The notes under the pieces were generated by a model. That model searched no databases. It was given only the letters and a program-made list of their open reading frames with translations, and was not told the DNA's origin. Below are positions 2,115 through 13,083 of a DNA stretch of 15,619 nucleotides, one piece after another. The number at the start of each line of letters is the position of its first letter. Position 1 is the first letter of the stretch. Location of the stretch: contig MHOR01000007.1 of NCBI GenBank assembly GCA_001821915.1, positions 18,240 to 33,858 of the forward strand. The letters run 5' to 3'. This stretch comes from Candidatus Staskawiczbacteria bacterium RIFCSPHIGHO2_02_FULL_34_10. GTDB lineage: Bacteria; Patescibacteriota; Minisyncoccia; Minisyncoccales; Staskawiczbacteraceae. A program made the translations under genes and the position numbers.

Positions 2115-2153
2115 TCTCGTTAAATAGTCCGCCACAAACGGAATTTAACGAGA
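2115..2153 (-). promoter_or_regulatory. Perfect 11-bp inverted repeat (TCTCGTTAAAT…17 nt…ATTTAACGAGA) in the 5' leader of the SPFH gene
   Basis: The arms at 2115-2125 and 2143-2153 are exact reverse complements, and the element lies about 25 nt upstream of the proposed ATG at 2090. It may be an operator or a leader hairpin. Confidence 0.3.
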
Positions 2154-2270
2154 AGAAGTTTTTAAAGGACTGTCCAATTGACTTAAAACAATCAAATCAA
2201 TAGGTTATCTTTCTTATATCATAGTAAAGTATTCTTGTCAACCACTTTTTATTAATATTAAATACTATGT

Positions 2271-2300
2271 TGTTTTGTTACTATTTTATGTGATATAATG
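2271..2300 (+). promoter_or_regulatory. Candidate sigma70-type promoter for the plus-strand 4HB/T4SS-like operon (TTGTTT -35, extended -10 TGaTATAAT)
   Basis: An extended -10 element TGATATAAT ends at 2300, with TTGTTT about 18 nt upstream. It sits in the divergent intergenic region between the SPFH gene and the first 4HB gene. Confidence 0.3.
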
Positions 2301-2323
2301 AATAGTGAATTATTAATTTCTAT

Positions 2324-2766
2324 TTTTGAATTTCGAATAAATTTAAAATGATTTAATTTGAAAATTTATGGACAAAAAGTATGATTTAGAAGAAAGAACG
2401 GGGAGTTTTGGAAAAAGTATAATTAATTTTTGTAAATACATCAAACAAGATGTAATAACTAAACCTCTTATAAGCCAACTTATTCGTAGCGGAACAAGTA
2501 TAGGGGCAAATTACATGGAAGCCAATGGCGCAAGTTCAAGAAAAGATTTTAAAAATAAAATACATATTTGTAAAAAAGAATCCCAAGAAACAATGCATTG
2601 GTTAAAAATGATAATAGAATACGAGCCAAATAAAAAAGAACAAGCTATGATACTATGTAAAGAAGCGCAAGAATTAACTTTTATATTCGGAAAAATTATT
2701 TCATCTATGAATTCTAAAAATTCGGCATTCTGATTTTAATCAAAATTCGAAATTAGAAATTCAAAA
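2324..2766 (+). mobile_element. IR-bounded cassette 1 carrying four-helix-bundle gene 4HB-1
   Basis: The left arm TTTTGAATTTCGAATAA (2324-2340) and the right arm ATTCGAAATT[AGAAATT]CAAAA (2745-2766) are inverted copies of each other, apart from a 7-nt tandem duplication in the right arm. The same arms recur at 9861-9941. Confidence 0.4.
2368..2733 (+). CDS. Four-helix-bundle protein (Avd-like / '23S rRNA intervening sequence protein' family), paralog 1, 121 aa
   Basis: The diagnostic central motif LIRSGTSIGANYMEANGASSRKDF (L-x-RS-x-xSI-xAN-x-EG/A… S-x-KDF) is present. The size, about 120 aa, fits the family. Confidence 0.75.
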   Translation: MDKKYDLEERTGSFGKSIINFCKYIKQDVITKPLISQLIRSGTSIGANYMEANGASSRKDFKNKIHICKKESQETMHWLKMIIEYEPNKKEQAMILCKEAQELTFIFGKIISSMNSKNSAF

Positions 2767-2773
2767 TTTAGAC

Positions 2774-3190
2774 GTGGCACAGTATCCCATACCACAATTT
2801 ATTGAAAAAGAAGGAAAAATTATTTCTTTTTTAACCTTTAGACAGTTTTTTTTACTTGCCGGAGGAGGGGGCGCCTGCCTTTTATTGTATTTTATTCTGC
2901 CATTTTTTCTTTTTGCGCTTTGCGCAATAATTATAATGTCTTTAGTCGCAATAATAGCTTTTTTAAGAGTTAATGGGTTTTCTATAATAACAATATTTTT
3001 AAACTTTGTTGGTTTTTTAACAGGCAGTAAAACTTATATATGGAAAAAAGAAGAATCTTCTTATCCATTTAAAGTGTTAAAACGCCAAGAAGTTAAAAGT
3101 ATAGAAGAAGTAAAAACACCAAGTTTTTTAATGAAATCAAAGGCTAGTAAATTAAATGAGATTAAAAAAATGGTAGAATTAAAGAAATAA
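2774..3190 (+). CDS. PrgI/VirB3-like small membrane protein of Gram-positive-type T4SS (GTG start), 138 aa
   Basis: A short N-terminal cytoplasmic segment (…PIPQFIEKEGKIISFLTFRQFFLL) is followed by a double-helix hydrophobic hairpin (AGGGGACLLLYFILPFFLFALCAIIIMSLVAIIAFL). The gene sits immediately upstream of the VirB4-family ATPase, as prgI does relative to prgJ. The assignment rests on architecture and context only. Confidence 0.4.
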   Translation: MAQYPIPQFIEKEGKIISFLTFRQFFLLAGGGGACLLLYFILPFFLFALCAIIIMSLVAIIAFLRVNGFSIITIFLNFVGFLTGSKTYIWKKEESSYPFKVLKRQEVKSIEEVKTPSFLMKSKASKLNEIKKMVELKK

Positions 3191-3210
3191 TTTAGCTAAA
3201 TTATTTCTTT
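3181..3210. repeat. Perfect 30-bp palindrome AAAGAAATAATTTAGCTAAATTATTTCTTT overlapping the stop codon of the PrgI-like gene
   Basis: The 30-mer is its own reverse complement, giving a 14-bp stem with a 2-nt loop. It lies 5 nt before the left IR arm of cassette 2. Confidence 0.5.
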
Positions 3211-3215
3211 AATTA

Positions 3216-3703
3216 GAATCTAGAATCTTGTATCTTGTAGTTGGAATAGAATAAAGAATTATGAATAATAATGAAAATAAAATAAGAAAATTTACAGATC
3301 TTTATGCTTGGCAAGAGGGACATAAGTTAGTTTTAATGGTTTATAAAAATACTGAACAATTTCCAGAAAAAGAGAGATATAGTATTGTAGACCAAATGAG
3401 AAGAGCTGTAGTTTCTTTGACTTCCAATATAGCAGAGGGATTTTCAAGGAGGTCATCAAAAGAGAAAAATAGATTTTATTGCATAGCTCAAGCATCACTA
3501 GTAGAATTATAAAATCAATTTATTATATCTCGCGATGTTGGTTATCTATCAGAAAATGATTTTAAAATAATTGCTGACCAATCAGTTATAGCCAATAAAC
3601 TTTTAAATGGACTCTTAAAAGCTACTAAAGATAAGAAATTTGAGTCTTAGATTCTAAATTCAAAATATTTAATTCAAGATACTAGATACAAGATTCAAGA
3701 TTC
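3216..3703 (+). mobile_element. IR-bounded cassette 2 carrying 4HB-2 (interrupted)
   Basis: GAATCTAGAATCTTGTATCT (3216-3235) and AGATACAAGATTCAAGATTC (3684-3703) are reverse complements at 19 of 20 positions. Together they bracket the 4HB ORF like the stem of an rRNA IVS. Confidence 0.45.
3261..3650 (+). pseudogene. Four-helix-bundle (Avd-like) gene, paralog 2, interrupted by an in-frame TAA at 3510-3512. The N-terminal part is the 83-aa ORF in the track; the family's C-terminal part continues in the same frame to a TAG at 3648-3650.
   Basis: The N-terminal part carries …LYAWQEGHKLVLMVYKNTEQFPEKERYSIVDQMRRAVVSLTSNIAEGFSRRSSKEKNRFYCIAQASLVEL, a classic family motif. After the TAA the same frame reads NQFIISRDVGYLSENDFKIIADQSVIANKLLNGLLKATKDKKFES*, the expected C-terminal helix. 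A single base change (CAA, GAA or AAA to TAA) would explain the interruption. Confidence 0.65.
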
Positions 3704-3710
3704 ATAGTTT

Positions 3711-4373
3711 ATGGAAACAGCAACACAAGAATTTTTAGAAATAAAGGATATTAGAGAAGGTGTTTTGATTTTAAAAAATAACAACATAAGAGGGGTTCTT
3801 ATGGTTTCTTCAACAAATTTTGCTTTAAAGTCTAATGAAGAGCAGTCTGTTATTGTTTATGCATATCAAAACTTTTTAAACTCGCTTGATTTTTCGTGCC
3901 AAATTGTAATTCAATCAAGAAATATTAATATTACTCCCTATTTAGACAGCATTAAAAATTTAGTGGATAAACAGCCCAATGACTTATTAAAAGCGCAAAC
4001 TTCTTCTTATGGCGAATTTATAAAAGAGTTAGTGCATGGGGATAATATTATGACAAAAAACTTTTATGTGGTTGTGCCATATACTTTAACAGAAATACTA
4101 GGGGTAAAAGCTGCTTTATCAGAAACCAGTTTTTTTAAAAGTTTTAGTAAAAGTAAGGATAAAAAACAGCAAATGAAAGACGAAGACTTTGAAAAATGCA
4201 AAAACCAGCTTTGGCAAAGAATGGAGTTTTTAGCTATGGGATTAAAAAGATGCGGCTTAGATGTTATTCCTTTAACAACCCCTGAATTAATAGAGTTATT
4301 TTGGTCTGTCCATCATCCAAGCGAAGCAGAGGTTGGGTATTATCCGGAAATATTGCCAGAACTCCTTAAATAA
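3711..4373 (+). CDS. virB4: N-terminal domain fragment of a VirB4/TraC/PrgJ-family T4SS ATPase, 220 aa, ending at the left edge of cassette 3
   Basis: There is no NTP-binding motif. The sequence resembles the N-terminal region of Gram-positive VirB4 homologues (…IKDIREGVLILKNNNIRGVLMVSSTNFALKSNEEQSVIVYAYQNFLNSLDFSCQIVIQSRNINITPYL…). The downstream 599-aa ORF begins where such proteins continue. The combined length (220 + 599 = 819 aa) matches a full VirB4. Confidence 0.45.
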   Translation: METATQEFLEIKDIREGVLILKNNNIRGVLMVSSTNFALKSNEEQSVIVYAYQNFLNSLDFSCQIVIQSRNINITPYLDSIKNLVDKQPNDLLKAQTSSYGEFIKELVHGDNIMTKNFYVVVPYTLTEILGVKAALSETSFFKSFSKSKDKKQQMKDEDFEKCKNQLWQRMEFLAMGLKRCGLDVIPLTTPELIELFWSVHHPSEAEVGYYPEILPELLK

Positions 4374-4846
4374 TATTAAATATTAAAAAGCAAAAAGCAA
4401 AATGACAAATTAAAATGGAAAATCAAAAAGATAGCAGTAAATTTAAGGTGGAATTTAAAAAAAGATTATATACATTTGTTTTAAAAATGATTGAATTTAT
4501 TGATAAGCTGCCAAATGATAATGTTTCAAGAAGGATAGGGGATCAATTATTAAGAAGTGGAACAAGTATTTTGGGTAATTATATTGAAGGACAATCAGCA
4601 AGTAGTAAAAAAGATTTCATTAATTTTTTTAATCATTCATTAAAATCAGCTAATGAAAGTAAATTGTGGTTTGCAATAATTAGAGACAGTAAAAGAACTA
4701 AAGACTATATTGTTGTTTGGTTTTTAAAAGAATTAGATGAAATAGCAAATATATTCGCATCCAGTATCATAACTCTTAAAGGGAAAAATAAACTTTGATT
4801 TTTGATATGTCATTTTTATATTTGATATTTAATTTTTGATATTATT
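4369..4846 (+). mobile_element. IR-bounded cassette 3 carrying 4HB-3, inserted between the two halves of the VirB4-family gene
   Basis: The left flank is AATAATATTAAATATTAAAAAGCAAAAAGCAAAATGACAAATTAAA. The right flank is TTTTTGATATGTCATTTTTATATTTGATATTTAATTTTTGATATTATT. The two are imperfect inverted copies that share TGTCATTTT/AAAATGACA, ATATTTAAT and AATAATAT/ATATTATT. The TAA stop of the N-terminal half and the ATG of the C-terminal half sit at the cassette edges. Confidence 0.4.
4415..4798 (+). CDS. Four-helix-bundle protein (Avd-like / 23S rRNA IVS protein family), paralog 3, 127 aa
   Basis: Carries the family motif …IGDQLLRSGTSILGNYIEGQSASSKKDFINFFNHSLKSANESKLWF…. Confidence 0.75.
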   Translation: MENQKDSSKFKVEFKKRLYTFVLKMIEFIDKLPNDNVSRRIGDQLLRSGTSILGNYIEGQSASSKKDFINFFNHSLKSANESKLWFAIIRDSKRTKDYIVVWFLKELDEIANIFASSIITLKGKNKL

Positions 4847-6646
4847 ATGAAGTTACCATTCTTCAATAAGAAGGACGACGAAATAGAAGATAAAATGTTT
4901 GTGGAGCAAAATATTGACGTAAAAGACATTATAGCTCCACCATACATTGGCATAACCCAAGATTATATAAAATTAGGGGATAAAATTGCCAAATCTTTTT
5001 TTATTTTTTCTTACCCAAGGTATTTAAACACTGGATGGCTTTCTCCTGTAATTAATTTGGACGTCCAAATGGATATATCTTTTTTTATACATCCTATTAA
5101 TAGTGAATTAATTTTAAAAAAATTAAGGTCTAAAATTACTATGGTATCTTCAGAATTAATGGAAAGGCAAGAAAAGGGCCTAATAAGAGACCCTGCTTTA
5201 GAAACTGGATATCAAGATATTGAAAACTTGCGCGATAAAATTATAACCGCTCAGGAAAGAATGTTTAGGTTTGGGCTTTATATAACTATTTACGAAGAAA
5301 CAGAAGAGAAAATCAAATCAATTGAAGTTAATTTAAGATCAATTTTTGAATCACGCCTAATTTATATAAAACCTTCTTTATTTAAACAAAAGGAAGGTTT
5401 TATTTCAGCTGTCCCGTACGGACTAGATTTAATAAATGTCCATGTGCCAATGGATACAGAACCATTATCAACCACATTTCCTTTCATTTCTTTTGATTTA
5501 AGTTCTAATGAAGGTATTTTATATGGAGTAAATAGGCATAATAATTCTCTTATTTTATTTGATAGATTTACATTAGAAAACTATAATTTAGTTGTTTTTG
5601 CTAAATCTGGATCTGGTAAATCATATGCAATAAAACTAGAAATTTTAAGATATTTAATGTGGGGAATTGACGTTATTGTTATTGACCCAGAAAACGAATA
5701 TGAATTTTTAGCTGATGGAATAGGGGGGAATTTCTTTAAAATATCTTTAAATTCAGATAATCACGTAAATCCTTTTGACTTGCCGCTGCCAGGGCCTGAT
5801 GATGACCCTGAAGATATTTTAAGATCTAACACTATAAACTTAGTTGGATTATTTAGGATAATGTTAGGGGGTTTAACAAGTGAAGAAGACAGTATTTTAG
5901 ACCAAGCCATAACAGAAACATATGCTATAAGAGATATAACCCCGCAATCCGATCCAAATACATGGCAAGAAAATATACCTTTAATGTCTAACTTTGAAGA
6001 AATTTTAGAAAATATAACCCAAGCAGAATCTTTGGTAAGACGCCTTAAAAAATATACAAGAGGAACTTTTTCTGGATTTTTCAACCAACGGTCAAACATA
6101 CAAATTGATAAAAGTTTTATAGTTTTTGGAATAAGAGATATGGAAGAGTCCTTAAGGCCTATTGCTCTTTTTATAGTAATGAGATATGTTTGGAACATAG
6201 TAAGAACAAACATAAAAAAAAGAATTTTGGTGGTTGATGAAGCTTGGTGGTTAATGCAATCAGAGGATGGCGCTTCATTTTTATTTGGTTTAATAAAAAG
6301 AGGCAGAAAATACTGGCTGGGAGTTACCACTATAACTCAAGACATTGAAGACTTTATGAAGTCTCCTTATGGAAAAGCTATTATTACAAACTCTTCACTG
6401 CAACTTTTATTAAAACAATCTCCCGCGGAAGTTGATATATTACAAAAAACATTTGACTTAACAGAACAAGAAAAGATGCTTTTACTGGAAGCATCTGTTG
6501 GAGAAGGGCTTTTCTTTGCTGGTAAAAAACATGTATATATTAGTATAAAAGCCAGCTATACTGAAGACCAAATAATAACCACTAATCCGGGAGAAGTTGA
6601 GAAGATAAAAGAAGCAAAAAGGAGATTAAAACAATCCACAAATTAG
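4847..6646 (+). CDS. virB4: VirB4/TraC/PrgJ-family T4SS ATPase, C-terminal 599 aa including the P-loop NTPase domain
   Basis: Walker A VVFAKSGSGKSYAIK. Walker B RILVVDEAWWL, with the DEAW motif typical of VirB4/TraC. The region before the P-loop (YPRYLNTGWLSPVINLDVQMDISFFIHPI…LRSKIT…ELMERQEKGLIRDPALETGYQDIENLRDKI…ERMFRFGLYITIY) matches the conserved VirB4 middle domain as I recall it. Confidence 0.7.
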   Translation: MKLPFFNKKDDEIEDKMFVEQNIDVKDIIAPPYIGITQDYIKLGDKIAKSFFIFSYPRYLNTGWLSPVINLDVQMDISFFIHPINSELILKKLRSKITMVSSELMERQEKGLIRDPALETGYQDIENLRDKIITAQERMFRFGLYITIYEETEEKIKSIEVNLRSIFESRLIYIKPSLFKQKEGFISAVPYGLDLINVHVPMDTEPLSTTFPFISFDLSSNEGILYGVNRHNNSLILFDRFTLENYNLVVFAKSGSGKSYAIKLEILRYLMWGIDVIVIDPENEYEFLADGIGGNFFKISLNSDNHVNPFDLPLPGPDDDPEDILRSNTINLVGLFRIMLGGLTSEEDSILDQAITETYAIRDITPQSDPNTWQENIPLMSNFEEILENITQAESLVRRLKKYTRGTFSGFFNQRSNIQIDKSFIVFGIRDMEESLRPIALFIVMRYVWNIVRTNIKKRILVVDEAWWLMQSEDGASFLFGLIKRGRKYWLGVTTITQDIEDFMKSPYGKAIITNSSLQLLLKQSPAEVDILQKTFDLTEQEKMLLLEASVGEGLFFAGKKHVYISIKASYTEDQIITTNPGEVEKIKEAKRRLKQSTN

Positions 6647-6680
6647 TAGTTTTTTAAAGAAATAGTGGTATAATAAACCT

Positions 6681-8192
6681 ATGTTTAAAAAATATAACCA
6701 CCTAATACTTTTTGTCAGCTTATTTGTCTTGGTATTTTTTGCTTTAACTAATATTCAGTCTGTTTTAGCTCTTGAATTAAATTATCCTACACTCCCAGCT
6801 CCATTTAATATTGGGTGGAATGACTGTTCTAGCTCGGTACCATCGCCTACAGGAAATTGTCCGACTTTAACTCAATATATTGCTTATATTTTTTATTTCG
6901 CAGTGGTAGTGGCTGGAATAATAGGCGTTTTATCTATAATTATATCCGGCTTTCAAATATTATTATATGCTGGCAATCCATCTGCAATAAGCGCCGCGAA
7001 AGAAAGAATTTTTGGCTCTGTTTTAGGAATAATTCTTTTAATGTTTTCTCTTGTGCTTTTGCAAACTATAAACCCGGCACTTGTAAATGTGACTCAATCA
7101 GAGTTACTGCTTCAACCTGGACTTTATTATAGGGGTGACAACCCCAATCCTGGACCTACCACCCCCTATGTATATAAACCGGCGTCCACACAATCATCTA
7201 ATGTATTAACCGATTTACCTGCAGGATTTTCACATCTTTATTATAAATGCAACCCGCCCGGCAAAGCTCTTTTAGTTTGGACATATAGTAGAATAACCTG
7301 GAATTTAGACTATGTCGCAAATGGAAATTCAAATGCAACAACATTTCGCATACCATGTGGCTCTTCAATGAGTATAAGTCTTGATTCTGTAATGTCTTTT
7401 TATACAGCGTCCGAAGAACCTGGTGTTTATTTCTTTTTAAAAACTGGATGTGAGGGCTCTAGTACTACTGTCTTGCAAGAAAGCGGCCATATACCTGATT
7501 TTAGTTATATATATACTGAATTAGAACCACCAGTACTTTCATTAAGAATCGTTAATGAGGGTCTAATTCAAAAATATGCAGTGATTTTAAATAAAGATTA
7601 TGAATTTAAGAAAGAATGCAGCGCGCCACTTGGAATATTTAGTGGCACAATTGTAACCCCTCCACTCGAAGAAGGTAATTGTATTAATGTGTTGCCTCCC
7701 GATAAAGATGGAAATATATTTAATCCTTTTTCTGCATATATTATAAAACAACACGTTCAAGAATATCCGTCTATTTATACCGCTACTTTTTACAGTGGAA
7801 ATTTAGAGGCTAAATTTGAAAAACCTAATATAAAACAATGGTACTCATACGAGGGGAATATGAATCTTATTTTCACAAATAGGTGGCAAGATTCATCGAG
7901 AGTACCTCTGGATGCTTGGTATGCTGACCAATCCAAATGTAAAAATATAGTTGGTGATTACACTTGTTTAAACTATATAGAAAATGATGGATTTTTCAAC
8001 ATTATCCTTTATAGTAGTAATGAAAACGCACCTAATCCTAGTAGAACTAGATCTTGTGAAGTTTTCTTTAGTGAAAATTTAATCGCTGATGACCTTGACC
8101 TTCACTCAGATTATAATAATGCAAGTTATATAAATCTTTTACAGGGAGGTAGAAGTTTATATAGAATGGATATTATCCCTTATCCTAAATAA
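6681..8192 (+). CDS. Secreted/membrane protein: a cleavable signal peptide, a VirB2/TrbC-like pilin module (two hydrophobic helices separated by a short polar turn), and a roughly 360-aa Cys-rich extracellular domain with a Pro/Gly linker
   Basis: The N-terminus is MFKKYNHLILFVSLFVLVFFALTNIQSVLA, followed by the helix pair TQYIAYIFYFAVVVAGIIGVLSIIISGFQILLYAGNP…KERIFGSVLGIILLMFSLVLLQTINPAL, which is organised like the T4SS pilin families of CPR bacteria. A linker PGLYYRGDNPNPGPTTP follows. The C-terminal region has at least 12 Cys and no recognisable catalytic motif. Confidence 0.4.
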   Translation: MFKKYNHLILFVSLFVLVFFALTNIQSVLALELNYPTLPAPFNIGWNDCSSSVPSPTGNCPTLTQYIAYIFYFAVVVAGIIGVLSIIISGFQILLYAGNPSAISAAKERIFGSVLGIILLMFSLVLLQTINPALVNVTQSELLLQPGLYYRGDNPNPGPTTPYVYKPASTQSSNVLTDLPAGFSHLYYKCNPPGKALLVWTYSRITWNLDYVANGNSNATTFRIPCGSSMSISLDSVMSFYTASEEPGVYFFLKTGCEGSSTTVLQESGHIPDFSYIYTELEPPVLSLRIVNEGLIQKYAVILNKDYEFKKECSAPLGIFSGTIVTPPLEEGNCINVLPPDKDGNIFNPFSAYIIKQHVQEYPSIYTATFYSGNLEAKFEKPNIKQWYSYEGNMNLIFTNRWQDSSRVPLDAWYADQSKCKNIVGDYTCLNYIENDGFFNIILYSSNENAPNPSRTRSCEVFFSENLIADDLDLHSDYNNASYINLLQGGRSLYRMDIIPYPK

Positions 8193-8197
8193 TTATT

Positions 8198-8731
8198 TTA
8201 ACGGGAGCTAATAACTACACTCCTATTAATTCCTTCTCCTTGACTACCTGTAACAACGTCTTGCCGTTGAGCTAATTCCATATGTATTATTCTTCTTTCA
8301 TAAGCTGGCATAGGAGGCAGCGCTTTTTTTTCTTTAGTTAAAAACACTTGATCAGCTAGTTCATTAGCTATTTTTTTTAAATACTCAATTTTCCTTTTTT
8401 TATAGTCATTAATATCTAGTTTTAAATAAAAACTCTTTTGTAATTTTTTATTTAAAATTATTTTTAAAATTCTCTCTAGTTCAAATAAAGTTTGGCCTTC
8501 TTGCCCGATTAAAATTTGTGGCTCCTCTACTTTTATATCTAAGATAATTAGATCTATAATTTCACTATTTTGTAATTGAAAATCAATAATAGGTTGATTG
8601 GCCTCTAAAGATTTAGATTTTTTTTCTACAAAAGAAGTATTTAGTTCTATATTAAGAATTTTTATAGTCATTTTGTCTAAAAATTCTTGCAAAATACTTT
8701 TAATTTTTTCTAATTCTTCTTGATTTATCAT
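8198..8731 (-). CDS. jag: Jag/KhpB (R3H-domain RNA-binding protein, SpoIIIJ-associated)
   Basis: C-terminal R3H motif …YERRIIHMELAQRQDVVTGSQGEGINRSVVI. The gene sits immediately downstream of yidC in the conserved rpmH-rnpA-yidC-jag block. Confidence 0.8.
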   Translation of the reverse strand: MINQEELEKIKSILQEFLDKMTIKILNIELNTSFVEKKSKSLEANQPIIDFQLQNSEIIDLIILDIKVEEPQILIGQEGQTLFELERILKIILNKKLQKSFYLKLDINDYKKRKIEYLKKIANELADQVFLTKEKKALPPMPAYERRIIHMELAQRQDVVTGSQGEGINRSVVISSR

Positions 8732-8737
8732 ATTTTA

Positions 8738-9466
8738 TTAGGTGGGTTGCGCGCCTTTATTCTTATTAAAAATGAAGTATTGCTGTATTATAGAAAATAT
8801 TCCGCTTACTATCCAATATAAACCTAGCGCCGAAGGTAGTTTTAAAAGAATTATTATTGTTATAACTGGGAAAATATAAAGCATTTGTTTTTGCATAATA
8901 GAAGCCATATTTGCCTCCTTGGCTTGTTTTTTATTTAATTTAGGCGCTAGCATTTTTGTTTGAAAAAACTGTATAATTCCTGCTAATACAGCAAAGGTAA
9001 AATTTGGCTTTGATAAATTTACTACATTAAAAAACATCGCATTAATATGAATAGGATTTACAACAAAGTTATATAAACTATTAAGCGCTTCTGGCTTTAA
9101 TCCCTCCCAAAAAACCCTATATAAAGCAATTAATATAGGAAGCTGTATAATAATTAAAAATAATCCACTAAAGGGATTAATTTTTTCTTTACGATAAAGT
9201 TCTAGTGTTTCTTTAGCTTGTTTTTCTTTATCATCTTTAAATTTTCTTTGTATCTCCTCTATTTTTGGTTGTAATAATTGAAGAACTTTTTGGGAATTAA
9301 GGGCTTTTACTGAAATAGGATAAAGAATAAATCTTATAATTATTGTTACTAGTATTATTGTTAAGCCAAAATCATGTGTTGGTAGATAGTTATAAATTAA
9401 GACCAGAAAGTTAAAGAGGGGACGATATAAAAAAATATCAAAAATATTTACTAAAAATCCAAACAT
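8738..9466 (-). CDS. yidC: Membrane protein insertase YidC (short Oxa1-type form, 242 aa)
   Basis: Conserved YidC core …RFILYPISVKALNSQKVLQLLQPKIEEIQRKFKDDKEKQAKETLELYRKEKINPFSGLFLIIIQLPILIALYRVF…, with five hydrophobic helices. It lies between rnpA and jag. Confidence 0.9.
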   Translation of the reverse strand: MFGFLVNIFDIFLYRPLFNFLVLIYNYLPTHDFGLTIILVTIIIRFILYPISVKALNSQKVLQLLQPKIEEIQRKFKDDKEKQAKETLELYRKEKINPFSGLFLIIIQLPILIALYRVFWEGLKPEALNSLYNFVVNPIHINAMFFNVVNLSKPNFTFAVLAGIIQFFQTKMLAPKLNKKQAKEANMASIMQKQMLYIFPVITIIILLKLPSALGLYWIVSGIFSIIQQYFIFNKNKGAQPT

Positions 9467-9477
9467 TGCTTATTTAT

Positions 9478-9831
9478 TTAAATTAGATTTAATTTTTCGA
9501 AAACTTTAAATATATTACTTTTAACCTCTGAAAATTCTTTTTTTTCAATTCCAAATAAGGCAATGATTATAATATCTAATGGTTTTTTTATGCTATTTGG
9601 AGAATTTTTTTTAAAATTATTTAAAATTATAGATCTTAATCTTCTTTTTACTTTATTTCTTACAGTAGCTTTATTGGATACTTTCTTGCTAACTATAAAA
9701 CCGAAGCGACTTTCCTTTAAATGGTTTTTCATTGTCTTAAAAACTAAAAAATCATTTTTAAAACTCCTGCCTTTTTTAAAAACCAAATCAATATCTTTTT
9801 TTTTGGTCAACCTATTTATTTTTGGCAACAC
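9478..9831 (-). CDS. rnpA: RNase P protein component
   Basis: MLPKINRLTKKKDIDLVFKKGRSF…VRNKVKRRLR matches the RnpA N-terminal region and the RNR-type basic motif. It is downstream of rpmH. Confidence 0.9.
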   Translation of the reverse strand: MLPKINRLTKKKDIDLVFKKGRSFKNDFLVFKTMKNHLKESRFGFIVSKKVSNKATVRNKVKRRLRSIILNNFKKNSPNSIKKPLDIIIIALFGIEKKEFSEVKSNIFKVFEKLNLI

Positions 9832-9860
9832 GTAAGCTAATTCTTAATTTCTAATTTCTA

Positions 9861-9941
9861 ATTTTGAATAAATTCTAAATGATTTAATTTTAAAAACGTG
9901 TTTCTAAAATTTAAAATTCTTATTTTATTCGAAATTCAAAA
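9861..9941. repeat. ORF-less copy of the cassette arms (MITE-like or solo-IVS-like element) in the rpmH-rnpA spacer
   Basis: 9861-9890 matches 2330-2359, the left flank of cassette 1 in direct orientation, at 27 of 30 positions, including the exact 14-mer AAATGATTTAATTT. 9924-9941 is the exact reverse complement of 2324-2341, an 18 of 18 match. 9927-9941 matches the cassette 1 right arm ATTCGAAATT…CAAAA. Both arms are therefore present with only about 30 nt between them. Additional TAATTTC-type 7-nt tandem repeats lie at 9841-9868. Confidence 0.5.
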
Positions 9942-9963
9942 TTCTAAATTCGAATTTAAATTA

Positions 9964-10098
9964 CTATACCGATAACTTCTTTCTCCCTTTAGCCCTCCTT
10001 CTTTTAAGAACCTGTTCTCCTTTTTTAGTTTTTTTACGCACTAAAAAACCGTGTGTCCTTTTTCTTTTCTTCTTTTTTGGGTTATATGTAAAACTCAT
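9964..10098 (-). CDS. rpmH: 50S ribosomal protein L34, 44 aa (not in the supplied ORF track)
   Basis: The reverse complement translates to [44 protein letters not shown], which aligns convincingly with E. coli L34 (…[26 protein letters not shown]…). The ATG is at 10096-10098 and the stop is the complement of 9964-9966. Confidence 0.9.
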
Positions 10099-10389
10099 AG
10101 ATTGTATAATTATTTAGGTTAATATAATATGGGACTATTGGCTAGTATAGTATAAAAAGGCGCTCTGGTCAAATATATATATATTTGATTTAAACTTTTA
10201 ATTATCATTTTACATTTTAATATTTGCATTTTTAATTTTTATTATTGTGCGTCTTCATTAAAATATACAACACAACTTATCCACAGTTTAATAACATATA
10301 CGACTATTTTGTTTTGATTTGACTCTTTACTTTAAGGTTGATATTTTATTTATATAATTCAAAGTAATTAAAAATATAAATATAAAAAC
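10099..10389. promoter_or_regulatory. Probable oriC region in the rpmH-dnaA spacer, with an AT-rich unwinding element and divergent rpmH and dnaA promoters
   Basis: A 291-bp non-coding AT-rich spacer lies between the divergent rpmH and dnaA genes. It carries an (AT)n tract at 10174-10186 and one perfect DnaA box. Confidence 0.55.
10277..10285 (+). promoter_or_regulatory. Perfect DnaA box TTATCCACA
   Basis: Exact 9-mer consensus located 105 nt upstream of the dnaA ATG. Confidence 0.6.
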
Positions 10390-11751
10390 ATGGAAAATAG
10401 TGAACTTTGGCAATCAGTTTTAGCTCAGATGCAGCTTCATATTTCTAAGGCAAATTTTGCGACGTGGTTTCAAAATACTAGTATTGTCTCAAAAGAAAGT
10501 GAAAAGATTATAATTTCAGTTCCTAATGCTTTTTCTAAAGAATGGCTAAGTAATAAATATTACAAACTAATGCTTAAAACAATGCGCGATATAGACCACA
10601 CTATAAAAGAGTTAGAATTTACTATTAATCCACAATCCCTGAAAAAAAATATTATCGATAGAAAAACAGAAACCGAAAACGAAAAAATAGATATAGAACA
10701 ATTAAAATTTGATGAGTTTAAAGTTAATAGGGAAACTAATCTTAATCCCCGTTATACATTTGAAAATTTTGTTGTAGGATCATTTAATGACTTAGCTTAC
10801 GCTGCAAGCTTAGCCGTCTCAGAAAGCCCAGGACAGGCCTACAATCCATTATTTATTTATGGGGGTGTTGGATTAGGTAAAACTCATTTAATGCAGGCAA
10901 TTGGTAATAAAATAACAAATGACTCTAAAAAGAAAAAAGTAAAATACACTACCTCTGAAAAACTTGTTTCTAGTATTATTTCAGCTATTAGAAGCAATAC
11001 AATGGAGTCTTTTAAAGCTAGTTTAGCCCCAATTGATGTTTTAATTGTAGATGATGTGCAATTTATATCTGGCAAAATAAAAACTCAAGAAGAATTTTTT
11101 CATGTTTTTAATTCTTTATATGAAAAAAATAAACAAATAATACTTTCTTCAGATAGACCTCCAAACGCTATTCCAGAATTAGAAGAGAGGTTAAGGTCTA
11201 GGTTTGAAGGAGGTATGATTGCTGATGTTAATTTACCAGACTATGAAACAAGATTAGTAATCCTTAAAACAAAACTTCAGGAAAAAAACTTAAAACTACC
11301 AGAAGATGTATTAGAATATATTGCATCAAATGTTAAAAAAAATATTAGGGAATTAGAAGGAGCTTTAAATAGTTTATTAATTTATTGTAAAGTTAATAAC
11401 ACCCCCACTGTAGAAATAACTAAAAAATTATTAAAAGGTTTTGTTTTTTCGCCTTTTGATATTGCAAATTATAAAAAAATTATTGAAACAGTCGCTAAAT
11501 TTTATAATTTAGAAGAAAAAAACCTTTTTGACCAAACAAGAAGAAAAGAAATTGTAAAACCAAGACAAATAGCTATGTATTTATTAAGAAAAGAATTAAA
11601 ATATTCTTTTCCCACAATTGCGAGAAAATTTGGCGGCAAAGATCATACTACTGTAATATATGCATATAAAAAAATATTAAAAGAAAGTGAAGAAAATAAT
11701 AAACTAACAGAAGAATTAAGTTTAATAAAACAGAGAATATATAGTGGATAA
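10390..11751 (+). CDS. dnaA: Chromosomal replication initiator DnaA
   Basis: AAA+ Walker A GGVGLGKTHLMQAIGN and Walker B VLIVDDVQF. The domain IV HTH KPRQIAMYLLRKELKYSFPTIARKFGGKDHTTVIYAYKKI follows the conserved GG-DHTTV signature. Confidence 0.95.
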   Translation: MENSELWQSVLAQMQLHISKANFATWFQNTSIVSKESEKIIISVPNAFSKEWLSNKYYKLMLKTMRDIDHTIKELEFTINPQSLKKNIIDRKTETENEKIDIEQLKFDEFKVNRETNLNPRYTFENFVVGSFNDLAYAASLAVSESPGQAYNPLFIYGGVGLGKTHLMQAIGNKITNDSKKKKVKYTTSEKLVSSIISAIRSNTMESFKASLAPIDVLIVDDVQFISGKIKTQEEFFHVFNSLYEKNKQIILSSDRPPNAIPELEERLRSRFEGGMIADVNLPDYETRLVILKTKLQEKNLKLPEDVLEYIASNVKKNIRELEGALNSLLIYCKVNNTPTVEITKKLLKGFVFSPFDIANYKKIIETVAKFYNLEEKNLFDQTRRKEIVKPRQIAMYLLRKELKYSFPTIARKFGGKDHTTVIYAYKKILKESEENNKLTEELSLIKQRIYSG

Positions 11752-11796
11752 TATATATAATAAATCTATTAATTAAAAAATAAAAAATATATTCTA

Positions 11797-11808
11797 TTTA
11801 TCCCCACA
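11797..11808 (+). promoter_or_regulatory. Degenerate DnaA-box-like site TTATCCCCACA in the dnaA-dnaN spacer
   Basis: Matches the consensus with a single C inserted. It lies in a 204-bp AT-rich spacer. Confidence 0.2.
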
Positions 11809-11955
11809 ATATATTTATATATTTTTTAACTACTTTATTAACAGTTTATTTATTTTAATTTTATATATATTTTTATAATAAAAAATTACCAAAAATCATT
11901 AAAACATTATCTATAATAGTAATAATAATTTAATATATTAATAATTATAATAATT

Positions 11956-13083
11956 ATGAAAATAGAAATATTAAAAGAAAATCTAAAATCTGGACTTGGA
12001 ATTATAGAAAAAATTATTGGTAAGAATTTATCACTACCTATTTTAGATAATGTTTTAATAGATACAGAAGATAGTTTTTTAGTTTTAACTTCCACTGATT
12101 TAGAAACTGCTATTAAATTATGGATTTTAACTAAAATTATAAAAAAAGGCACAGTTGTTGTACCAGCAAAATTTCTTTCTAGTTTTATTTCTTCTTTACC
12201 AAACGAAAAAATTATAATGGAATCTAAAGAGCAAAAATTATATGTGGAATGTAGTAATATAAAAACACAAATTCAAGGATATAATACTGAGGACTTTCCA
12301 ATTATACCTAAATTTAATAACACTGAATTTATAGAAATAGATAATAAAAAGTTTTGCCAAGGATTATCTCAAATAATTGATATTGTTTCTATATCGCAAA
12401 ATAGGCCAGAAATTTCTGGTATTTATTTTTCTTTCTCAAAAAATAATATTAAAATTGTTGCCACTGACAGTTTTAGATTAGCAGAAAAAAATATCCAACT
12501 AGAAAAAAGTGTTAAAAAAGATTTTTCATTTATTTTACCCCAAAAACCAGCAAGAGAAATAATAAATATTTTGAATAGTAAAGAAGGGATTATTAGAATG
12601 TATTTTTCTAATAATCAAATATTATTTGAGTTTCCAATGAAAGAGATAGATCACCCTCAACTACAAATTACCTCTCGACTTATTGAGGGTGAATATCCTA
12701 ATTATCAAGATATTATTCCAAATAAATTTAAAACACTTATTACAATAAAAAGAGATGAATTTTTAAATCACATAAAAACAGCATCATTATTTTCTGGTAA
12801 AGTTAATGAGGTTAAACTTTTAATTAATGTAGATAAAAAAGAAGTGGAAGTTTTTGCTAAAAGTCCTGAGATAGGAGAAAATAAATCAAATTTTTCTGTA
12901 AAAATAGAAGGGGATCCAATAGAAGTTTCTTTTAATTATAAATATTTAATAGATGGACTTTTAAATATTAAAAGTTCTGAAATAATTTTTAAAATAAGTG
13001 AAAAAGAAGGTCCTTGTATTTTAGAGCCAGTTGGAGATAGTAGTTATATTTATGTAGTTATGCCTATTAAATCAATAAACTAA
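11956..13083 (+). CDS. dnaN: DNA polymerase III beta sliding clamp
   Basis: MKIEILKENLKSGLGIIEKIIGKNLSLPILDNVLIDTEDSFLVLTSTDLETAI… is the classic DnaN N-terminus. The 375-aa size is typical, and the gene is immediately downstream of dnaA. Confidence 0.9.
   Translation: MKIEILKENLKSGLGIIEKIIGKNLSLPILDNVLIDTEDSFLVLTSTDLETAIKLWILTKIIKKGTVVVPAKFLSSFISSLPNEKIIMESKEQKLYVECSNIKTQIQGYNTEDFPIIPKFNNTEFIEIDNKKFCQGLSQIIDIVSISQNRPEISGIYFSFSKNNIKIVATDSFRLAEKNIQLEKSVKKDFSFILPQKPAREIINILNSKEGIIRMYFSNNQILFEFPMKEIDHPQLQITSRLIEGEYPNYQDIIPNKFKTLITIKRDEFLNHIKTASLFSGKVNEVKLLINVDKKEVEVFAKSPEIGENKSNFSVKIEGDPIEVSFNYKYLIDGLLNIKSSEIIFKISEKEGPCILEPVGDSSYIYVVMPIKSIN

Follow-up and report, generated by a model that had tools for sequence, protein, structure and literature searches.

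The window analysed here is a stretch of 15,619 nucleotides (contig MHOR01000007.1, positions 18,240 to 33,858) from the chromosome of a member of Candidatus Staskawiczbacteria, a lineage of the Patescibacteria or candidate phyla radiation (CPR), and it carries the conserved monoderm-type type IV secretion operon of this lineage. The VirB4 ATPase of the encoded type IV secretion system (T4SS) is specified by two consecutive open reading frames (ORFs) of 220 and 599 amino acids (aa), referred to below as the N and C ORFs or genes, and the interval between them, the N/C spacer, is occupied by a cassette (cassette 3) that encodes a four-helix-bundle (4HB) protein between inverted repeats. Here, we describe a computational analysis of the two genes, of the cassette, and of the relationship between the split in VirB4 and the inserted element. 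The features concerned are as follows:

3711..4373, plus strand: N gene, a stand-alone gene for a VirB4 N-terminal-domain protein (TrsD-like, 220 aa)
4369..4415, plus strand: left inverted-repeat arm of cassette 3 (inverted repeat I2), starting at the N stop and ending at the 4HB ATG
4415..4798, plus strand: 4HB-3, a four-helix-bundle protein of the 23S-rRNA-intervening-sequence family (127 aa; PF05635, TIGR02436)
4800..4846, plus strand: right inverted-repeat arm of cassette 3, ending one base before the ATPase ATG (4847)
4847..6646, plus strand: C gene, a VirB4 ATPase gene (599 aa) comprising the second half of the VirB4 N-domain and the P-loop ATPase domain

The reading of these ORFs as the N- and C-terminal parts of VirB4, made in the initial annotation, is upheld by family profiles, by the solved VirB4 ATPase domain 4AG5 and by collinearity with P0244, a one-piece Patescibacteria VirB4 of 797 aa. 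The C ORF encodes a VirB4-type P-loop ATPase. It matches the CD1110 VirB4 family of NCBIfam over positions 175-732 of 752 (E 2.4e-108; 363 bits against a cut-off of 325) and the Pfam families P-loop_TraG, AAA_10 and DUF87 (PF19044, PF12846), and it aligns with 4AG5 over residues 219-578 (E 1e-42). The Walker A (GSGKS) and Walker B (DEAW) motifs that had been reported for this ORF are both present in its translation. The N ORF matches three family profiles, namely positions 9-154 of 752 in CD1110, positions 104-245 of 894 in the Mbov_0397 VirB4 family and positions 21-148 of 201 in the TrsD/TraD family, with E-values of 1.7e-8, 1.3e-5 and 8e-5; every one of these matches lies under the curated whole-protein cut-off, the NCBIfam TrsD model scoring the N ORF at 22.5 bits against a cut-off of 200. 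Of the Pfam models in the profile check that had been proposed for both ORFs, AAA_10 is matched by the C ORF; for the N ORF a local Pfam scan returned no significant family and only a sub-threshold phage chaperone match. PF03135, suggested for the same check, is matched by neither ORF. Precomputed database annotation assigns the N ORF to PF26593 (TraC-like). A sequence search of PDB chains with the N ORF gave chance matches only (E of at least 0.1); a fold search was used instead, and it found the VirB4 N-terminal-domain fold.

When the two translations are concatenated, they are collinear with P0244 (375 identities), the N ORF alone corresponding to residues 7-213 of that protein. The junction, whose place in an alignment to intact homologues the initial annotation had proposed to check, falls in a 21-residue gap of an unconserved linker. 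The pair therefore resembles one-piece VirB4/TraC/CD1110-family ATPases (R388 TrwK, 7O41/7O42; P0244) in its full-length collinearity, in its ATPase domain and in the similar fold of its N-domain, but differs from them in that the polypeptide is divided in the linker after approximately the first 200 residues of the N-domain. A single polypeptide of about 800 aa is not encoded, since the N ORF ends in a stop codon (4371-4373) and the C ORF opens with an ATG of its own (4847).

The comparison with relatives covered 86 Patescibacteria loci, made up of 80 species-representative genomic loci and 6 from metagenome assemblies and metagenome-assembled genomes. N and C are separate ORFs in every one, and the N gene stands directly 5' of the VirB4 ATPase gene in all 86, as it does in Bacillota plasmids. 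The distance from N stop to C start is at most 48 nt in 66 of the 86 loci, none of which has a cassette in this spacer; 18 of the 66 have overlapping or abutting genes. An ORF-less distance of 70-225 nt is found in 16 loci, and only four contain an ORF-bearing insert (4HB in two, PDDEXK_3 in one, unknown ORFs in one). The larger spacers are those of the window (4HB; 473 nt, which becomes the 476 nt first reported only if the stop codon is counted), L011 (orthologous 4HB; 459 nt), L007 (PDDEXK_3) and L012 (1,675 nt). Three close relatives have an N/C spacer without a cassette gene, measuring 15 nt in L004 and consisting of ORF-less hairpins in L001 and L005.

Protein databases and more distant loci give the same picture. 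Of 5,529 homologues of the N ORF, the best 120 all measure 201-224 aa, the top one being an identical protein from a metagenome-assembled genome of Candidatus Staskawiczbacteria (Parcubacteria/CPR), and among the best 150 representatives of 50%-identity clusters a single one-piece protein, of 797 aa, was found; the rest measure 112-443 aa, some of them with low-complexity tails. Plasmids of the cultivated Bacillota Pontibacillus and Geobacillus carry PrgI, an N homologue and an overlapping gene for a VirB4-like ATPase of 621-636 aa. The reading frame of C with respect to that of N varies between loci (counts of 14, 26 and 26), and read-through fusion is thus not a conserved feature; the cassette-free relatives retain a stop codon of their own after N and a start codon of their own for C. 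The rare one-piece VirB4, which is collinear with N plus C, occurs at a locus with full synteny (PrgI, VirB4, then R3H, YidC, RnpA and DnaA), and this shows one-gene and two-gene VirB4 to be interchangeable versions of the same machine. Judged from these comparisons, the split itself appears to be old, ancestral and independent of any cassette.

Several of the compared proteins and spacers have peculiarities of their own. The TrsD-like homologues P0180, P0192 and P0210 are 417-443 aa long and bear long Pro/Gln/Ala-rich low-complexity tails after the conserved 200-aa domain. The VirB4 ATPase ORF of L011 (7108-10896), of about 1,260 aa, is interrupted by an intein (Intein_splicing and LAGLIDADG_3) just after Walker A, at a site equivalent to residue 259 of the C ORF; the C gene of the window has no intein. 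ORFs of about 1,260 aa also occur in L012, L021, L034, L036, L042 and L050, with the same break position as the L011 intein (276 in L050), Pfam having been run on L011 only. The N/C spacer of L012, which represents one species, contains a pair of co-directional ORFs (6174-7816), 356 aa and 193 aa long, neither of which gave a Pfam match. In L007, sequence duplicated from the N gene's 3' end borders a run of 100 N (2140-2239); this apparent 20-30 bp copy was considered as a target-site duplication and rejected as a scaffolding artefact, since it flanks the run of 100 N.

A two-gene VirB4 of this kind (TrsD plus VirB4) is already known and ordinary in Patescibacteria. A 2025 survey (PMC12102498) describes TrsD, with pGO1 as prototype, as a remote homologue of the VirB4 N-terminus and as the most abundant T4SS component in Patescibacteria, where it counted 2,272 copies, 1,664 of them next to virB4. 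The same survey reports the same VirB4 split for the pGO1 prototype, and places Patescibacteria T4SS operons often near dnaA (PMC12102498). In S. epibionticum ML1 the TrsD gene is essential, and the T4SS genes, TrsD homologue included, are essential in the sole cultured member of the Patescibacteria tested (PMC12102498). As in the TrsD plus TrsE/VirB4 pair of the monoderm MPF_FATA systems (pGO1) and in its Patescibacteria counterpart (PMC12102498), a homologue of the VirB4 N-terminus of about 200 aa lies directly 5' of a shortened ATPase gene, and the pair lies 3' of a PrgI/VirB3-like gene; as in the Patescibacteria counterpart, the locus is chromosomal and adjoins dnaA. The window differs from these systems in that it has a 4HB cassette between the two genes and in that its match to the TrsD model is below the cut-off. 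The split as such adds nothing beyond the 2025 survey.

Cassette 3 fills the gap between the two genes exactly, as the initial annotation had described, with arms (4369-4415 and 4800-4846) that abut the stop codon and the ATG. Each arm is 47 nt long, the two are 81% complementary, and the left one begins at the TAA of N (4371-4373). 4HB-3 matches PF05635 (E 1e-16; 61 bits against a cut-off of 33.8) and TIGR02436 (E 3e-22; 79 bits against a cut-off of 24), and its dN/dS of about 0.06 relative to L011 and L087 points to purifying selection. In the N/C slot of L087 the 4HB gene has no canonical start (735-765), and the same frame runs on directly after the N stop; it may be a pseudogene, start at a non-canonical codon or be translated by read-through.

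Cassette 3 is of the 23S-rRNA intervening-sequence (IVS) type, and it is secondary and mobile. In the Coxiella 23S IVS, a 4HB ORF is combined with stem-forming inverted repeats and with tandem heptamers just 5' of the ATG, and RNase III cuts the element out without religation (PMC4990558). Cassette 3 shares with the 23S IVSs that carry an S23p/4HB ORF (Coxiella, Leptospira and others) the PF05635/TIGR02436 ORF, the long terminal inverted repeats that form a stem and the heptamer repeats 5' of the ORF. Short ORF-less versions exist among 23S IVSs, as they do among the N/C spacers. The differences are three. Cassette 3 lies in the spacer of an mRNA operon, between two protein-coding genes, and not in helix 25 or 45 of a 23S rRNA gene; 4HB-3 is under purifying selection, whereas the Coxiella ORF is decaying; and 23S IVSs are removed by RNase III, whereas cassette 3 may be processed in this way. 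4HB genes have also been described within rRNA insertions of CPR bacteria (preprint 10.1101/2024.02.27.582315). Two other element classes were considered and rejected. Integron attC cassettes do not fit, as the repeats flank the ORF in place of a single 3' site and no integrase is found among the annotated ORFs of the window. The accessory protein (Avd) of diversity-generating retroelements does not fit either, as the bAvd/Avd matches are far below cut-offs and no reverse transcriptase is found among the same ORFs.

Close relatives of 4HB-3 lie mostly outside T4SS operons. In 80 metagenomic loci with 4HB proteins 63-89% identical to 4HB-3, about 10 copies lie in the T4SS operon, some in the N/C slot and some upstream of N, and about 70 have unrelated genes on either side. 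The upstream neighbour runs in the same direction as the 4HB gene in 53 of 56 cases, the downstream neighbour in 50 of 55, and the spacers that host these genes are barely longer than the arms. Among 83 distinct T4SS loci, 25 cassettes with 4HB or PDDEXK_3 ORFs occupy four different slots, and all 25 are oriented in the operon direction. The arms of 66 related cassettes show a 7-nt periodicity, (AAAWATC)n on the left and (GATWTTT)n on the right, and PDDEXK_3 cassettes are likewise flanked by repeat-built inverted arms. Duplex-energy z-scores for arm pairing are below -3 in only 13 of 76 cassettes, and observed pairs could not be told apart from control pairs in a comparison across loci. These weak statistics arise because cassettes at different loci share heptamer-repeat arms, and they reflect this family property rather than an absence of pairing. 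The expanded ORF-less N/C spacers, for the most part strong hairpins composed of repeats of about 7 nt, include those of L001 (5664-5775), L005 (5670-5817), L025, L041, L013, L042, L067 and L054. When 12 distinct ORF-less N/C spacers were folded, seven gave z-scores of -3 to -10, three were near -2 and two were not significant; such hairpins may be miniature cassette derivatives or short IVS-like elements.

These observations suggest that VirB4 of this lineage is natively a product of two genes and that cassette 3 was inserted later into a short N/C spacer, where it looks harmless and did not cause the split. We hold this account to be very probably correct. None of the three explanations offered in the initial annotation, namely gene fission by insertion, an inactivated T4SS and an RNA-level excision event, is supported by the comparison with relatives.

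Fission would mean that a 4HB cassette entered a formerly one-piece VirB4 gene in this genome or its recent ancestors. In its favour, the arms abut the stop and start codons exactly, a one-piece form does exist in the group, and the N/C spacer is a recurrent landing site, with an expanded spacer or a cassette in 20 of 86 loci. However, the split is present in all 86 loci, and the 66 with a minimal or overlapping spacer show no trace of a cassette, which already contradicts a recent time-scale. Bacillota plasmids are split in the same way without such cassettes, as is the pGO1 prototype (PMC12102498), and other spacers of the operon hold cassettes as often or more often. Fission by insertion is thus highly unlikely. 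More remotely, an ancient IVS-type insertion might have created the VirB4 fission originally.

The possibility that the operon is a decaying, inactivated T4SS, with the two ORFs as pseudogene fragments, draws on the presence of three selfish cassettes within 2.5 kb, one of which (4HB-2) has an in-frame stop. Measured against relatives at 70-84% identity, N and C show a nonsynonymous divergence (dN) of 0.12-0.20 with synonymous divergence (dS) saturated, and a dN/dS of about 0.12 where computable; the C ORF alone gives a dN of 0.12-0.17, again with dS saturated. Both halves are accordingly functional and under strong purifying selection, which makes inactivation of the T4SS unlikely. Moreover, neither is truncated by comparison with thousands of homologues, the Walker motifs are preserved, and the operon and its origin-adjacent position are conserved; the essentiality of T4SS genes, including the TrsD homologue, in the cultured member noted above (PMC12102498) also speaks against decay. 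We regard this alternative as extremely improbable. Neither ORF is to be taken for a broken gene, and this genome is to be counted as having an intact T4SS; in annotation, the 599-aa protein is a complete ATPase subunit, and the 220-aa "hypothetical protein" is better named a VirB4 N-domain/TrsD-like subunit.

It is barely conceivable that the cassette is removed from the RNA with its flanks joined as in an intron, or bypassed by the ribosome, to give one VirB4 of 819 aa: the stem would bring the two gene ends together, but a fusing excision is not needed where cassette-free relatives keep an N stop and a separate C start in unconserved relative frames, Rfam finds no intron in the window, the known IVS excision by RNase III proceeds without religation (PMC4990558), and the true protein-level excision elements of this gene family are inteins, sited elsewhere (after Walker A, as in L011).

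A mechanism can be proposed by which a native two-gene VirB4 would tolerate the cassette. VirB4 is produced from two adjacent genes, one for the first part of the N-domain (about 220 aa) and one for the remainder and the ATPase (about 600 aa), and the two proteins would assemble into the VirB4 unit without a covalent link. In compact loci, translation of C would be coupled to that of N. Cassette 3 entered the short spacer between the genes after the split, and in the operon transcript its arms are predicted to pair into a stem of about 47 bp; they are paired in both the minimum-free-energy and the centroid folds, and the fold sets the stop codon of N across from the start codon of C at the stem base. 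Comparison of the window with the orthologous cassette of L011 shows ATGACA/TGTCAT exchanged for AATAAA/TTTATT with pairing kept, a compensatory change. Two routes may keep the insertion harmless. RNase III could cut the stem, as in rRNA intervening sequences, leaving expression of C undisturbed; alternatively, ribosomes terminating on N could open the base of the stem, keeping translation of C coupled to that of N. A Shine-Dalgarno motif was found before none of 15 genes in the window, and its absence at the C gene is thus uninformative. Initiation probably depends on accessible AU-rich RNA, and a stem beside the AUG would then be functionally relevant.

Several points weigh against this part of the account. 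For the 501-nt region as a whole, the predicted fold is no improvement on that of shuffled sequence (z = -1.07). Arms that served as terminal repeats at the DNA level would be expected to stay complementary as well, and a test for RNA-level selection on the arms, comparing G:T with A:C mismatches, gave 51 against 34 (p = 0.08). Finally, non-covalent assembly, RNase III cleavage and coupling by the stem are all steps that we infer.

It is possible, although we consider it rather doubtful, that IVS-type cassettes with 4HB or PDDEXK_3 ORFs constitute a general class of Patescibacteria mobile elements that extends beyond rRNA, is specialised in short spacers between co-directional genes, forms a stop-start stem, is rendered harmless by RNase III or by the terminating ribosome, and has the ORF-less hairpins as its miniatures. 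Among these results only the biology of cassettes in mRNA spacers is new, and mildly so. Cassettes and ORF-less hairpins recur in the spacers of an essential, origin-adjacent operon, always in the direction of transcription, and may merit a study of their own; their behaviour could help to explain the long-mysterious role of 4HB/IVS elements and how these spare their hosts.

The remaining features of the operon in the window are these:

2308..2768, plus strand: cassette 1, upstream of the PrgI-like gene (inverted repeat I1; arms 2308-2377 and 2699-2768)
2368-2733, plus strand: 4HB-1, the ORF of cassette 1 (PF05635, E 7e-16)
2774..3190, plus strand: PrgI/VirB3-like membrane protein, operon member upstream of the N ORF (PF12666 PrgI, E 9e-7)
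3216..3703, plus strand: cassette 2, between the PrgI-like gene and the N gene (inverted repeat I3; arms 3216-3253 and 3666-3703)
3261-3652, plus strand: 4HB-2, the ORF of cassette 2 (PF05635, E 2e-24 for the first 83 aa)
6681..8192, plus strand: T4SS pilin-like protein, operon member downstream of the ATPase gene (PF18895 T4SS_pilin, E 1.5e-6)

From 2.3 to 8.2 kb the plus strand thus reads 4HB-1, PrgI/VirB3-like, 4HB-2, the 220-aa ORF, 4HB-3, the 599-aa ORF and the pilin-like gene, and the PrgI-like and pilin-like genes share a T4SS cluster with the VirB4 ORFs. The gene order around the PrgI-like gene is the same in relatives, whose loci have a TrbL_3 gene upstream. The interval 8198-13083 contains the minus-strand genes jag (R3H), yidC and rnpA and, after them, dnaA and dnaN on the plus strand; with these genes downstream, the T4SS operon adjoins the replication origin. 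A scan of 2150-5000 for promoters and terminators gave 17 promoter-like sites against 16.9 expected and is uninformative in such AT-rich DNA, and Rfam at gathering thresholds found no rRNA or other RNA family in the window.

In 4HB-2, a TAA stands in frame at 3510-3512, and family-typical sequence resumes in the same frame when translation is continued past this stop. 4HB-2 is, as far as its sequence indicates, probably a recently inactivated cassette gene, a pseudogene, within a cassette whose inverted arms are intact. The stop codon of the PrgI-like gene is spanned by a perfect 19-bp palindrome (AATTAAAGAAATAATTTAG / CTAAATTATTTCTTTAATT) at 3177-3214, just 5' of cassette 2 and its left arm.

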